NCBI GenBank assembly: GCA_943354555.1 | Contig: CALRCM010000002.1 | Coordinates: 1 to 58,844, forward strand | Source of the DNA: Candidatus Peribacteria bacterium | Lineage (GTDB): Bacteria; Patescibacteriota; Gracilibacteria; Peribacterales; Peribacteraceae | Direction: 5' to 3' | Length of the DNA: 58,844 nt | Shown here: piece by piece, positions 12,976 to 20,990 of the stretch | How the letters are laid out: each line of letters starts with the position of its first letter | Position numbering within the stretch: the stretch's first letter is position 1 | The notes under the pieces: generated by a model | Databases searched by the model: none | What the model was told of the DNA's origin: nothing | What the model saw: only the letters and a program-made list of their open reading frames with translations | Translations under genes and position numbers: made by a program

Positions 12976-13311
12976 ATGCCACACACTTTTTCCCCTCCCA
13001 CCGTGAGTTGGACGACGGAAGACTTGTATAACCTGCTCATGCGGGGCATCGAGCCGGACTTGTGTACAGACACACTCCCGCTTCTCGATACGATGTACGC
13101 GGATGAGACCCCTGAGCAGCGCAAGGAACGCATGCAGTGGTACAGCGAAGCCTTTGAAAAATTTCTGGGTCGCTACGAGCAATTTACTGCGGCGCTTCAT
13201 GGAGAGTTTCGGAAGATCCAGTCGAGTCTTTTAAAAGCTGCAGAGGGCAAGGACCAAAAGCAAGACAAAAATATTACCGCAAACATTGAGGAATTCTTCC
13301 GCAACGCCTGA
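12976..13311 (+). CDS. hypothetical protein, 111 aa (alternative starts 12886 or 12799)
   Basis: TATAAT at 12945-12950 lies upstream of ATG 12976. The stop TGA overlaps the ATG of the giant gene (TGATG at 13309-13313), suggesting coupling. Confidence 0.55.
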   Translation: MPHTFSPPTVSWTTEDLYNLLMRGIEPDLCTDTLPLLDTMYADETPEQRKERMQWYSEAFEKFLGRYEQFTAALHGEFRKIQSSLLKAAEGKDQKQDKNITANIEEFFRNA

Positions 13312-19300: not shown

Positions 19301-20990
19301 AGCAATACCTGTCACTTCCAGAGAAGGTATGGGCTTACCCGAAGAGCCCGTCAAAGAGCCCGTCAAAGAGCCCGTGAAAGAGCCCGTCAAAGAGCCCGTC
19401 AAAGAGCCCGTCAAAGAGCCCGTCAAAGAGCCCGTGAAAGAGCCCGTGAAAGAGCCCGTGAAAGAGCTCTCAATGGAATCTCAAAAAAGCGATGTTGATA
19501 GCACTTCCTCAGAGCCGCGGCAACTTTCGGAAGTACAGCGCAATAACCAGCGCAAAATTGAAGCTGCAAAAGCAAAACCGGATCGTTGGCTTCAAGCGAG
19601 TGAGATCGGTGGCACCGAGGGGCAAGGCTATTCGTACTGTTATGTTGCAAAGTCCGAAAATCTGTATGCACGCAATCGCGATGGCAGCATGCTTTTCCGT
19701 TTCAATCCGGAAACCCTCATTCATGAGGTTGTGGCTCGAGGGTCCGTTGAAGGTTTACCTGTAGAGCGTTCTCCCGAATACGAGCGCAACCAGCGCAAGC
19801 TTGATATCGCAAAGGATCGCCCTGGCAATTGGCTCACTGCGGCTGATATGGAAGGAACGAAGGGATATGTGTATTGCTACGAAGCTGCAGCGAACAAGCT
19901 CTATGCCTATGACCTTGGCAATCGTGCTTTCACCGTTCTGCAGGATTCGGGAACGGAGTGGCGCCCTGAGCAATGGCGCGAGGGAATGCCCCGTTTGCCG
20001 GATTATCTCTTCACAGCCACAGGTCCTCAATTTGTCGGACGATACGGGCAAAGGATCGCCAGCCTTGAAGCAGAAAAGAGCAGCGGAATATCGGAAGAGA
20101 AATACATCGCAATTGTCCGTGAAGCGGTGACTACTGCCGATGAATATCATACTTTTGAGGAATTGTTCATGAACCCGACTTCTGCCAAATACGCCGTTCT
20201 TCCTGAGCAGGTGTTGCGCGCTATCCGCGAGCACGGAAAGAAGCTTACAGGATTGGATACTGTAATTTCCGCATTGGAGAAGGATTACGGTATTAAGATT
20301 GAAACGGAGGCTATTCAAGAGGGAGTCGAGAATAAGGCAGTTCCACTCTCTCTGCGTTCTCTGGCTCAGGAGATGCAAGTCTTGCGGCAGAAATTGGAGT
20401 TGTATCCAAGAGAATTTCTCCATGTTGCCAAACCACCAAAGATCTACCTGATGCAGGAATGGCAAAATCTTCACAAAAATGAATGGATCGGTGCTGGGGG
20501 ATTTTCTTTTCAAGGAAATGCGATTGGCGTAAAGGACGTCAATCATGCTTTCAATCACGAGCTCTTGCATACTGCTGAATTTCGACTGGGTCTCTTTACG
20601 AACAACAACCATGCATGGGCGGAGAAAGCGCACGGTCCAAAGTATCAAGAGCAGAATATATATGGAGCAAGCGGGCAGGAAGCGATTGCCAAGAAAAATA
20701 GCTCGTCCGAACGTCCGAAAGGATTTACTTCGCCGTACGCAAGTAAAGGCGGTATCGATGAAGACCAAGCAGAAACTGCGGATCGCCTAGTTGCTGGCCC
20801 CAATTCCTACAAAGCAGTAATGACGTGGGCTCAAGAGGAACCTGCACTTGCCGCCAAGGTGGAAATGACAAAGCAATTCTATCGTTTGCATTCTCAAGGA
20901 TTGATGGATGACCAGTTCTGGACGGATTTTTCTTCGGGCAAGACCATCAATGCCCAGTATTGGGATGGGCGCAGAAACAAGAGCAAGTAG
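13311..20990 (+). CDS. giant repeat-rich protein, 2,559 aa, with C-terminal HExxH (putative zinc metallopeptidase) domain
   Basis: Uninterrupted 7.68-kb ORF. Internal paralogous modules at 14865-15912 (3x), 17100-17760 / 18158-18800 (2x) and 18866-19950 (4x). (EPVK)10 at 19344-19463. HELLH at 20556-20570. Confidence 0.9.
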   Translation: MHTYSSFFGGEWRSGERRLVFDASKEVSKAQPVDPNQMKLAELIRKSDTNKGVQKQIADYIRSGGAVLQDEVTDFQVKIQRKIVEQKDLDADKIRELFSAIPQTPDDLVQFAVIHGIISAPEAMRLSNAGSKSAVKNPIESSASTNPQKNAAPAAAAPAGPNKKDPKYWDGIAKDRRVQEETRKVEIDSQWKDADIGDIQERMASLADQMEELEKARRSAFNQKYINRPDVAKRYTRDTKARMEDVYQLSSADLRDVGARLAAATKEYNQLNSIHQRETGMRFGEWRMKGRNDPEFKKKSRQTAKKDAKRVQRIIDEDNSEDARKKEQEQRYEAAGRVLANRDSIGTKLDGLQGYKGRVTKKYIADAEADIAQALRKKSSSRLNAKELARIELSKAGRSTDQITFDWNETAEPYTGKPGLVKEVKTKLHIAEIDIGSNKGVQEGQILHYLRDIGDSKHYGGRAKVTQVTENSALVYFDGRPPVVGATIGRDPAYREPKSPQIPKSSGEVPSTLEKPERPFSITDDIESYENAVARSLIMAYKPGQREQALAIGASLGFVVKNDDIKDKSIVFQRTRPITKEDIAFIASKQSVLRYFEPNSRISHTTYTPTDILTSDIKDRKVPVKPELLEKLQAPQSADEIEKIADELLKQDIDPGLIVRASSQALKEMLEARNEDQKIIDDPEEYNKIKSRQLFITYRPGKREAVIALAQERGLKLVSEFPRMYFSTFEWPKEKPITRETLDAFKKHPNDIRSVGPNYSVTPAGEEPKEEPRTPKKDPEKAEKLQIVTNLEDYENAFSRRVIMHHKIDKRLEAIAIGKSLGFVEKEGETKANSIVFQRTRTLTGADIAAIASRSDVISAFEPKRRLLKYTPSSREFLILDMRELNLLPDEKISMKLVFPKSKEEVESVIDQLRKLEIDPGLINRARDEALEELSRKKGPEVQPRTPDKPVKTPDLKDTLSIEVRPGVSFEIPSNFKLIVERKNGVQVEIDQSIIRSILEMKKKALDSGKSEKQTTEGEVNFANGEKMTFAEVFATVENNAARIPKPPTEPIDKNDVRTSKIKFAPRPPAEESRPDTLRIPDAPPNPFSEKKVAPRSGPSSRPLDPVDDTDKILQDIESKTTKPRKRMDPIQNEKFELSEKNKKQFTDRLEKLDLRQLEQLGEKFLNANYPQPSKEDKAKGAAPRPPREPLIFSDKAEAVKTLLKWIRSDEENKLMDEQLKSMEKPESPDMKTSEPPLKPLRAIDKKGAALERSALPKVVLETSSDTRIQKLRNDIKNDPAYKLSTLREAVQKTVVGSSAPVPEYLRALISLVREVAAKSKDDREEPVFASMQQRLQDALQVVSPEIQTPQDFLDLTNTYYKMSREHLILLLKVLPDLTEVQKKFTADNLIPGTALDPSKQSFMTLKDIANSVDLNDISSLNKALADLEALKKTLGDRFPEFTEINDESKQREFAPYLIRRFLLDVFYTKIIYSKKLIEWFPKTLKELSEGMANDPVIKVSLIRNYITELRTKPQQDITAFRAALDLVNAEIAKSTNNYDIRELGTFKQSLENDIRRLSVPKGKNLSAESTKTETVPEPSVEPKAREVKKKPEREEESTVDTPKPEEETRLEMPPASKDARIQKLREGIKKNPAGKMETLRVFVESIEKGPKALDPEYLRAAIALVEEVSEQSSDTQRATLALSLGMLEDALQVVDPEVQTRQDLVDHIKRYEQMPLSQLVEVLKFMPDLTDEQKKYVAKNLVPGTPLDPKNQSFAELKVIANALKVDDSTSLDTALKDLGALARTLGDHPSAMGRLNKMTKLGEFGPYLMRRTLIRMFSNEVFDAKRALESKKKKGEKSDTATSSEPKNLTEAQRSNQRKIDAAKAKPDRWIPASEIGGTEGYSYCYVSKSQTLYARNKDGSILFRFHPETLKHEEVPAKSREGFGLPQDRTPEYESNQRKIDAAKLKPDRWLKANEVGGAAEYMYCYVAKTQTLYARTLDSSKLYRFNVDTLKPEAIPVTSREGMGLPEEPVKEPVKEPVKEPVKEPVKEPVKEPVKEPVKEPVKEPVKELSMESQKSDVDSTSSEPRQLSEVQRNNQRKIEAAKAKPDRWLQASEIGGTEGQGYSYCYVAKSENLYARNRDGSMLFRFNPETLIHEVVARGSVEGLPVERSPEYERNQRKLDIAKDRPGNWLTAADMEGTKGYVYCYEAAANKLYAYDLGNRAFTVLQDSGTEWRPEQWREGMPRLPDYLFTATGPQFVGRYGQRIASLEAEKSSGISEEKYIAIVREAVTTADEYHTFEELFMNPTSAKYAVLPEQVLRAIREHGKKLTGLDTVISALEKDYGIKIETEAIQEGVENKAVPLSLRSLAQEMQVLRQKLELYPREFLHVAKPPKIYLMQEWQNLHKNEWIGAGGFSFQGNAIGVKDVNHAFNHELLHTAEFRLGLFTNNNHAWAEKAHGPKYQEQNIYGASGQEAIAKKNSSSERPKGFTSPYASKGGIDEDQAETADRLVAGPNSYKAVMTWAQEEPALAAKVEMTKQFYRLHSQGLMDDQFWTDFSSGKTINAQYWDGRRNKSK
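19344..19463 (+). repeat. 10 x 12-nt perfect-period tandem repeat GAGCCCGT(C/G)AAA encoding (EPVK)10
   Basis: Counted directly. The only variable base gives the unit pattern C C G C C C C G G G. Confidence 0.95.

Follow-up and report, generated by a model that had tools for sequence, protein, structure and literature searches.

A large part of bacterial diversity belongs to the candidate phyla radiation (CPR), or Patescibacteria, whose members live attached to other cells. To our knowledge, almost nothing has been described of the proteins by which they act on their hosts or of how proteins without signals leave their cells, and we know of no type VII secretion system (T7SS) shown in these bacteria. 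Anthrax lethal factor-like (ATLF) domains are those of secreted toxins and peptidases, and the family Peptidase_Mx1 has, as far as we know, no characterized member. In Actinomycetota, genes for small helical targeting partners adjoin those of Esx/T7SS substrates (PMC13622651). In "Candidatus Peribacter riflensis," large proteins of 1,219 to 3,861 aa are described, in the passages of the genome paper that were searched, as the main source of variation between strains (PMC4736985), and these passages mention neither a small partner gene nor an N-terminal motif. Here we describe a gene pair from a Candidatus Peribacteria bacterium, located in a 58,844-nt stretch of contig CALRCM010000002.1 (assembly GCA_943354555.1), the whole of which is referred to as the window. 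A gene for a 111-aa protein precedes one for a giant protein of 2,559 aa, and a literature search returned no paper on Peptidase_Mx1 or on this two-gene module.

We propose, with a probability of about 0.45, that the giant is a modular, fast-evolving metallopeptidase effector and that the small protein is its dedicated chaperone or targeting partner. The principal elements of the pair are the following.

12976 to 13311, + strand: small partner gene, 111 aa, no transmembrane segment and no family match.
13309 to 13313, + strand: TGATG stop/start overlap of translational coupling, in which the TGA of the small gene overlaps the ATG of the giant gene.
13311 to 20990, + strand: giant gene, a single open reading frame (ORF) of 2,559 aa starting with ATG.
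13311 to 13385, + strand: N-terminal motif, MHTYSSFFGGEWRSG-ERRLVF-DA, in which ERRLVF occupies residues 16 to 21.
20016 to 20987, + strand: C-terminal zincin-like domain (aa 2236 to 2559), with HELLH at residues 2416 to 2420 and a conserved ID-ED-QAE at residues 2482 to 2488.

The original prediction had correctly noted that the ATG of the giant gene overlaps the stop of the 111-aa gene, and it had overlooked that this small upstream gene is not incidental. The frame of the small gene is open from position 12799 (170 aa), and the start at 12976 (111 aa) is favored by the starts of all homologues, a promoter-like site, and independent gene calls. The conserved core of the small protein reads W-x-[MT]-EDLYNLLM-x-x-[IV]EP[DE]L … ERM..Y.EAF..F…HGE; it lacks W-x-G, and no match was found in Pfam or among PDB sequences. 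Identity to the small protein of the window is 63% to 82% in Peribacteria-type loci and 36% to 42% in more distant ones, so that the small protein is conserved far better than its large partner.

Across the CPR, no part of the system is as conserved or as widespread as the small gene together with the initial ~25 residues of the giant. Scans of genomes and metagenomes with the small protein identified 12 more loci (loci are numbered here with the prefix L and individual proteins with the prefix P), each with a large ORF overlapping or abutting it downstream (987, 1,047, 1,141, at least 1,205, 1,548, 1,558, 2,165, and 2,477 aa). Stop/start overlap or abutment is also found in L001 to L005, L006 to L013, L016, and L018, and the scan of species-representative genomes yielded L002 to L005, from metagenome-assembled genomes (MAGs) of Candidatus Peregrinibacteria, Candidatus Peribacteria, and the Patescibacteria group. 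The motif, in the form [ED][RKHP]R[LIM]x[FYW], is present at residue 11 to 19 in every one of the 13 distinct loci that have a small-gene homologue, and an ERRLxF core lies at residue 10 to 19 in all 16 partner proteins examined, including P0010 and P0004. Loci were assigned to the module by a small-gene homologue upstream, overlapping or at most 12 nt away, together with the motif at residue 10 to 19 of the large protein, both of which are found in the window.

The large partners are far more variable. P0001 (2,165 aa; L001) matches the giant only over residues 1 to 519 (31% identity), and on its contig the upstream small gene is 68% identical to that of the window and ends at the start of the large gene. 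The distant partners in L005 and L013 have no detectable similarity to the N-terminal region of the giant, and that in L012 has a weak partial match; these three have only a short start in common with the rest, in which [ED][RKHP]R[LIM]x[FYW], at residue 17 to 19, comes after an aromatic residue.

The association was also recovered from the other end of the giant. E[RH]R[LI]xF occurs at residue 10 to 19 in 6 of 150 relatives of the C-terminal domain (P0002 to P0151), the expectation by our own estimate being ~2e-5 per protein. P0022 (1,036 aa), P0028 (1,123 aa), and P0007 (745 aa), which were found through the C-terminal domain only, are preceded by Pfam-less genes for proteins of 111 to 116 aa; two of these genes overlap the large gene by 4 nt, the third stops 11 nt ahead of it, and all three are clear homologues of the one in the window (hmmsearch E values of 1e-20 to 1e-22). 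Since the motif and the C-terminal zincin are the only parts that these three large proteins detectably have in common with the giant, the ancestral unit appears, from these sequence comparisons, to be the small protein plus a protein of the form motif … zincin. The neighboring genes differ between lineages and are housekeeping genes, and the gene pair can thus be taken as autonomous; in L016, L018, and L019, the next gene lies on the opposite strand (KhpA/R3H domain in L016 and L018, murJ in L019).

Some lineages carry the large protein with another partner. The P0003/P0004 lineage has the start DRRIFRF, five C-like modules (see below), and the zincin, and its partner is a distinct 105-aa acidic helical protein (L015, 185 to 502; L022, 617 to 934) that is not detectably homologous to the small protein. 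The tail of this 105-aa protein, SELSDIESKFDD, resembles that of the small protein of L005, and the large ORF of the lineage in L015 (477 to 1445) is broken by an N run inside a Lys/Glu repeat. P0010 is the smallest form, 395 aa consisting of the motif and the zincin alone, and the 126-aa gene upstream in its lineage is not detectably related to the small protein of the window. P0012 represents a motif-less subgroup that has no such small neighbor.

The C-terminal HExxH domain that had been predicted is indeed present, with HELLH as the only HExxH motif in the giant, and proved to be a divergent relative of Peptidase_Mx1. The Pfam profile of this family (PF15890) aligns with aa 2408 to 2520 at 21.5 to 21.9 bits (E, 1.3 to 1.7e-4), below the gathering threshold of 25.6, and the NCBIfam profile NF047804 (LIC13305 lipoprotein) gave 32.6 bits against a threshold of 250, the giant having neither the signal nor the lipobox. 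Peptidase_Mx1, an uncharacterized family of putative zinc peptidases, counts neither among the known adhesins nor among the known toxins. A profile search run exhaustively over 1.84 billion representative proteins, in which the (EPVK)n stretch described below was masked through the design of the alignment, recovered at least 150 relatives at E ≤ 1e-3 and 64 at E ≤ 1e-10, nearly all of which match only aa ~2236 to 2559. Word-indexed protein searches gave one match with the whole giant (P0001), none with the C-terminal 674 aa minus (EPVK)n, and one with a 28-sequence profile. Evidently, the orthologue at L002 (of which P0002 is a fragment) and most of the relatives are beyond the reach of word-indexed search, and it was the exhaustive profile search that opened the family.

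Peptidase_Mx1 is passed by 2 of 28 relatives (best E, 5.9e-8) and by 5 of 73 (best E, 3.2e-14), and TPR repeats occur in about 14 of the 73 full-length relatives scanned. The weaker matches are ~300-aa proteins with RRxFLK or hydrophobic N termini, with matches to TAT_signal as well. In the alignment of the 73 full-length relatives, H2416, E2417, H2420, E2484, and D2485 are kept in at least 90% of the sequences. The AlphaFold2 model of the domain, based on the 28-sequence alignment, has a predicted local distance difference test score (pLDDT) of 92.6 and a predicted template modeling score (pTM) of 0.90, and a four-strand sheet (strands 148 to 178) directly precedes the helix that bears HExxH (181 to 197), an order like that of zincins. 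Foldseek comparison of the model with BFVD gave no significant match (best E, 0.011, to a MuF C-terminal domain-containing protein, and 0.043, to an IrrE N-terminal-like domain), and a profile search of PDB sequences gave nothing relevant. We conclude that the domain is a divergent Peptidase_Mx1-like zincin with no characterized or solved relative. Judged from the conserved residues and the model, it is probably an active metallopeptidase, in which H2416 and H2420 would be metal ligands, E2417 the catalytic base, and E2484 or D2485 the third ligand.

In Peribacteria, the pair occupies an orthologous site on the chromosome and does not belong to a mobile element: it sits between an orthologous 1,370-aa gene upstream and, downstream, carA with the genes that come after it, and the flanks are syntenic. 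No relative was found in the viral contigs searched; with the site being chromosomal and syntenic, a phage or mobile origin was rejected. At L002, a Peregrinibacteria MAG, the large protein (2,477 aa) is an orthologue of the giant, with identities of 82% for the small protein, 38% for the N terminus, 63% for the last 985 aa, and 84% for the flanking carA. Among Peribacteria-type loci, the profile of the C-terminal domain matches only the window and L002, and related Peribacteria carry at the same site proteins of 987 to 2,477 aa with other C termini. The C terminus of L003 is an ATLF domain (M34; 35.3 bits against a gathering threshold of 27.4), which was visible only when a 202-aa segment was scanned, whole-protein Pfam scans missing domains in proteins of such biased composition. 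L001 has nine DUF4116 repeats and a tail, and the tails of L001, L004, L005, L011, and L013 have no Pfam assignment. Members share other segments in a patchy manner, L004 with both L001 and L002, for instance. The small protein is retained where the zincin is absent (L001, L003, L004, L011, and L013). Caspase- or clostripain-like His-Cys dyads suspected by eye in L001 (LLAHGDG…ALSCYGAG, aa ~1900 to 2165) and L007 (VILHGSPQG, aa ~1150 to 1205) had no Pfam support and were dropped.

Ahead of the zincin, the giant is built of the following regions, the internal repeats having been defined by self-BLAST of the protein in chunks and by iterative profile searches.

13311 to 14330, + strand: conserved N-terminal region (aa 1 to 340), a helical domain ending in IPQTPDDLVxF…GIISAPE and then a Lys/Glu/Arg-rich segment.
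14331 to 14810, + strand: region of aa 341 to 500, with a strongly conserved RDSIGTKLDGLQGYKGR…RKKSS stretch and a small beta-rich segment.
14808 to 16130, + strand: three A modules (aa 500 to 670, 655 to 770, and 770 to 940).
16131 to 17096, + strand: Pro-rich charged middle region (aa 941 to 1262; 11% Pro).
17097 to 18815, + strand: two B modules (aa 1263 to 1500 and 1616 to 1835), helical by sequence pattern.
18846 to 20015, + strand: four C modules of ~80 aa each (aa 1846 to 1925, 1926 to 2012, 2066 to 2145, and 2146 to 2235).
19342 to 19467, + strand: near-perfect tandem repeat of 12 nt x 10.5 (126 bp), encoding (EPVK)10, the linker between C2 and C3.

The N-terminal region (aa 1 to about 340) is shared at ~30% identity across the Peribacteria-type partners L001, L002, L003, L004, L007, and L011, and aa 341 to 500 are common to L001 and L002 only; the middle region (aa 941 to 1262) has no relative outside the window except for a partial overlap with L002. 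The outer copies of the A module are 43% to 46% identical and the middle copy is ~27% identical to them, and L002 has a single, partial A copy. The B copies are 47% to 55% identical to each other, and B-like modules recur in L002, L003, L004, and L011. The C copies are 50% to 74% identical as protein, and the module occurs four or five times in L002, P0003, and P0004. Its AlphaFold2 model, made from 16 module copies (pLDDT, 88.6; pTM, 0.78), consists of one helix followed by a beta unit of five or six strands, with one conserved Cys per copy in a YCY motif. A polo-box- or kelch-like resemblance of this module was dropped, as the Foldseek matches in PDB were not significant (E values of 0.2 to 1; best, 0.23, to a polo-box); BFVD held no significant neighbor of the model either. 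Because the C module and the zincin co-occur in three lineages, we suspect a substrate- or target-binding role for the module. In the window lineage, ~1,900 residues have come to lie between the motif end and the zincin end through module duplication and shuffling. Of the repeats claimed originally, "at least four" module types at 30% to 45% identity, the existence and divergence hold, but the protein module types number three, with a microsatellite besides, and the identities among B and among C copies exceed the estimate.

None of the three module types (A, B, and C) matches a known family, nor does the small protein or the N-terminal region. The earlier view that the whole corresponds to no described family was upheld, as Pfam and NCBIfam gave nothing above threshold, PDB sequences nothing, and Foldseek against PDB nothing below an E value of 0.2. 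A by-eye lead, that the A modules resemble the subtilisin propeptide (I9), had no Pfam match at E ≤ 10, and a borderline Nif11 match (24.1 bits) on a short helix was disregarded.

As originally stated, the giant has no signal peptide or transmembrane segment: no 19-residue window reaches a Kyte-Doolittle value of 1.6, or even 1.5. No LPxTG motif was found in it, it contains only 4 Cys (0.2%), and its composition is highly charged and coiled-coil-like. The frame of 2,559 codons is uninterrupted, and its conservation in the L002 orthologue (63% identity across the last 985 aa) indicates that it is coding. A second assembly contains the identical pair of 111 and 2,559 aa on a 25.6-kb contig in independent gene calls. 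Compared as DNA, the C copies are merely 66% to 72% identical, which makes assembly collapse or chimerism unlikely and, with the orthologue and the second assembly, agrees with the earlier view of the repeats as old. The copy number of (EPVK)n is the sole assembly-sensitive part of the gene, and this stretch is likely a site of copy-number variation. We regard the giant gene as real and as very probably a member of a CPR two-gene module.

The proposed effector could work as follows. The overlapping stop and start would lead to co-production of the two proteins, and the small protein, as a dedicated chaperone or targeting adaptor, would grip the N-terminal motif and region as the giant leaves the ribosome. 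The pair would then take the giant out of the cell by a route that needs no Sec or Tat (twin-arginine translocation) signal, and the peptidase would cut surface proteins of the host or of neighboring cells, with the repeated modules as spacers or binding units under diversifying pressure. We give even odds to the binding of the small protein to the N terminus of the giant, to which two observations point: the strict co-occurrence across lineages that are otherwise unlike at the N terminus and the persistence of the small protein where the zincin has been replaced. That the giant is an exported effector is more tentative; this step draws support from the pattern of diversification, the occurrence of a variant with ATLF, distant relatives that are exported, linkers rich in Pro, Lys, and Glu, and the analogy with Esx substrates (PMC13622651). 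Bolder, and in our view unlikely, is the idea that the ERRLxF motif (~25 residues) and the ~111-aa partner constitute a new CPR targeting or export signal with its cognate chaperone for host-directed effectors. With it, these monoderm epibionts would place large, fast-evolving proteins that have no signal on host cells or inside them. Mx1-like and ATLF-like zinc proteases would be among the effectors, next to payloads of other kinds, and the 1,370-aa neighbor would be a further substrate.

Several points weigh against an exported metallopeptidase effector with a binding partner. Co-occurrence is the sole ground for the binding of the small protein to the N terminus. As for the peptidase, the giant's own sequence falls below the Pfam threshold and has no solved structural match (best Foldseek E value against PDB, 1.6). 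As for export, the giant has no signal peptide, transmembrane segment, lipobox, or LPxTG, no known secretion machinery is adjacent, and the sole secretion-related gene in the window, for a VirD4-like ATPase, lies 32 kb away. No immunity-like gene follows. The exported Peribacter giants, as far as the cited passages describe them, are Cys rich and signal bearing, against 4 Cys here (PMC4736985). In every lineage, the neighbors are housekeeping genes (those for DnaJ, KhpA/Jag, HU, topA, SecE-NusG, rpoC, and carA), and such neighbors fit a cytoplasmic core function equally well.

A cytoplasmic function is the alternative that survives best, although we consider it unlikely. The giant would be a regulated metallopeptidase or scaffold inside the cell, the repeats would be intracellular interaction platforms, and the small protein would be a regulator, inhibitor, assembly factor, or latch on the protease. 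Besides the housekeeping neighbors in four unrelated lineages, this would account for the highly charged, coiled-coil-like, and Cys-poor composition, for the minimal form with motif and zincin in P0010, and for the fact that no family member has an export signal or transmembrane segment. For a core enzyme, however, one would not expect the catalytic domain to be swapped (Mx1-like, ATLF, or none recognizable) and the length to range from 987 to 2,559 aa at one site, and a small protein that persists in five loci without the zincin is not a dedicated zincin inhibitor.

The exchange of C termini recalls instead a classical polymorphic toxin for interbacterial competition, with an N-terminal trafficking domain, an exchangeable C-terminal toxin, and a cognate immunity protein. 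The relatives do combine a conserved N terminus with variable C-terminal enzymatic domains, one of them of the toxin-type ATLF, and modules are shuffled between members. But downstream there is no small gene of the immunity type: what follows is a convergent gene for a 328-aa protein with a hydrophobic, signal-like N terminus. The site is stable and syntenic with no mobile-element context, the Mx1-like domain is conserved over deep CPR lineages rather than freely swapped, and Pfam revealed no Rhs/YD, LXG, PAAR, MuF, two-partner secretion (TPS), or other known trafficking domain. A toxin of this type is therefore improbable.

We would put at a similarly low level the view of the giant as a surface adhesin or fibrillar attachment protein whose repeats form a stalk presenting the terminal domain to the host. 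In the passages cited above (PMC4736985), CPR bacteria are described as epibionts whose surface proteins are large and variable, and the many repeats with Pro/Lys/Glu-rich linkers such as (EPVK)10 would suit a stalk. Yet the repeats are few in copy number and diverged, the catalytic HExxH of the terminal domain is intact, where a lectin- or adhesin-type fold would be looked for, and the giant has no signal peptide, LPxTG, S-layer homology (SLH), Ig-like, cadherin, or other adhesin domain. Of the two roles suggested by the original prediction, adhesion is unsupported, given these absences and the presence of only 4 Cys; host manipulation stays plausible, as an inference. Finally, an assembly artefact or decaying pseudogene with collapsed repeats or misjoined contigs, which the metagenome source, the internal repeats, and the 126-bp near-perfect microsatellite might have suggested, has a negligible probability given the diverged repeat DNA, the intact frame, the L002 orthologue with the same architecture, and the same gene length in another assembly.

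The window as a whole is bacterial chromosome from the Peribacteria/Peregrinibacteria (CPR), and its gene content includes rpoC, fusA, a class II ribonucleotide reductase gene, carA, purN-like genes, tsf, and genes for a sortase-SLH protein and a VirD4/TrwB-like ATPase. Two candidate regulatory elements flank the pair.

12924 to 12953, + strand: promoter-like TGGACG-18 nt-TATAAT, with TG upstream of it and 22 nt separating it from the ATG of the small gene; consensus match only, with 0.6 such sites expected by chance in the region.
21015 to 21041, in the gap that separates the giant gene from the convergent 328-aa gene: GC-rich hairpin with a 12-bp stem, a candidate terminator; consensus match only.

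The 1,370-aa protein encoded upstream (5531/5573 to 9643, + strand) is Pfam-less and has a 35%-identical orthologue in L004 (3672 to 8030). If started at the 5573 ATG, it begins with the motif-like MYHIFSRLPAFSSEREHRLCA, compared with MHHAHFFTGRGIEQERLLCSF in L004; no further BLAST similarity to the giant was found, and the protein may belong to the class of motif-bearing large proteins. The preceding gene encodes a Pfam-less protein of 750 aa (3309 to 5561, + strand) with RRRLIFD at internal residues 75 to 81 and no alternative start just upstream. Two type II toxin-antitoxin pairs, both on the + strand, lie downstream of the 1,370-aa gene and upstream of the small gene: a Phd/YefM antitoxin (11508 to 11855) overlapping a ParE toxin (11774 to 12031) and a DUF433 protein (12256 to 12495) overlapping a DUF5615/PIN-like protein (12492 to 12872). 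In L002, a Phd/YefM-ParE pair lies directly upstream of the small gene, near the contig end.

On the other side, the convergent 328-aa gene (21078 to 22064, - strand) adjoins the 3' end of the giant gene; its product has the hydrophobic, signal-like N terminus MRMFILLLLLLGLQSEVQA, is partly conserved in L002 and L003, and has no Pfam match. An NYN-domain protein, a predicted RNase, is encoded between there and carA (22764 to 23267, - strand). The class II ribonucleotide reductase (43240 to 46803, + strand; 1,187 aa) has two separate barrel-domain matches and a TSCPD domain, and an insertion, for example an intein, might account for the additional length. The fusion of a sortase with an SLH domain in one protein (49893 to 51095, + strand; 400 aa), an unusual combination, is consistent with a monoderm wall-anchoring envelope. 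The VirD4/TrwB-type coupling-protein-like ATPase (53204 to 55684, - strand; 826 aa) contains TrwB_AAD_bind, DUF87, and TraG-D_C and is followed by a PLD-family gene (55792 to 56961).

The giant gene would take up ~0.6% of a genome of ~1.2 Mb, the size being that given for "Candidatus Peribacter riflensis" in the passages cited (PMC4736985) and not that of this organism. This share and the retention of the pair over deep CPR lineages suggest an important function. If the small protein is indeed a chaperone of a targeting motif, the motif would offer a sequence handle for candidate effectors in thousands of CPR genomes. A conservative reading still yields a confidently modeled zincin subfamily with no solved relative, a new repeat module of ~80 residues, and an orthologous locus that clearly exemplifies the exchange of payloads.

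Among the known systems, "Candidatus Peribacter riflensis" is an organism of the same class as that of the giant, but the large proteins highlighted in the same passages are Cys rich, signal bearing, and predicted to be extracellular (PMC4736985). The LXG toxins of the T7SSb of Firmicutes, with their Lap and WXG100-like factors, resemble the pair in having a small helical upstream protein, a conserved N-terminal region, and a variable C-terminal enzyme. However, neither LXG (PF04740) nor WXG (PF06013) was matched, with the limit set at E ≤ 10 for segments of the giant and E ≤ 5 for the small protein; the window has no EssC/EccC by Pfam and no immunity gene, and the extreme N-terminal motif of ~25 residues has no LXG counterpart. 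Chaperone-effector pairs of type III or type VI secretion systems are akin in working logic, but the gene pair here has no linked apparatus. Tat substrates and their TorD, DmsD, or NapD chaperones share with the pair an N-terminal motif containing twin arginines and the placement of a gene for a small, dedicated protein beside that of the substrate, and distant relatives of the C-terminal domain carry true Tat-type signals with RRxFLK. The spacing of ERRLxF nevertheless differs from that of RRxFLK, ERRLVF is followed by the polar DASKEVSKAQPVDP with no hydrophobic h-region of the 12 to 20 residues that come after S/T-R-R-x-F-L-K in Tat signals, and the small protein matches none of the redox enzyme maturation protein (REMP) families.

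For the C-terminal domain, the closest comparison is with Peptidase_Mx1 and the LIC13305 lipoprotein of Leptospira, with which it shares an HExxH on a helix that comes after a beta-sheet and, ~65 residues downstream, a pair of conserved acidic residues, the alignment spanning aa 2408 to 2520. It differs in an additional helical N-terminal subdomain of ~170 aa with a conserved KYGIxIETE and in its setting at the end of a signal-less protein of 2,559 aa with no lipobox, whereas theirs are exported proteins or lipoproteins of ~300 aa. ATLF (PF07737; MEROPS M34) is absent from the giant itself, whose HExxH domain is of a different family, but the protein of L003 at the orthologous locus does end in an ATLF domain, which indicates that the C-terminal position hosts toxin-type zincins.

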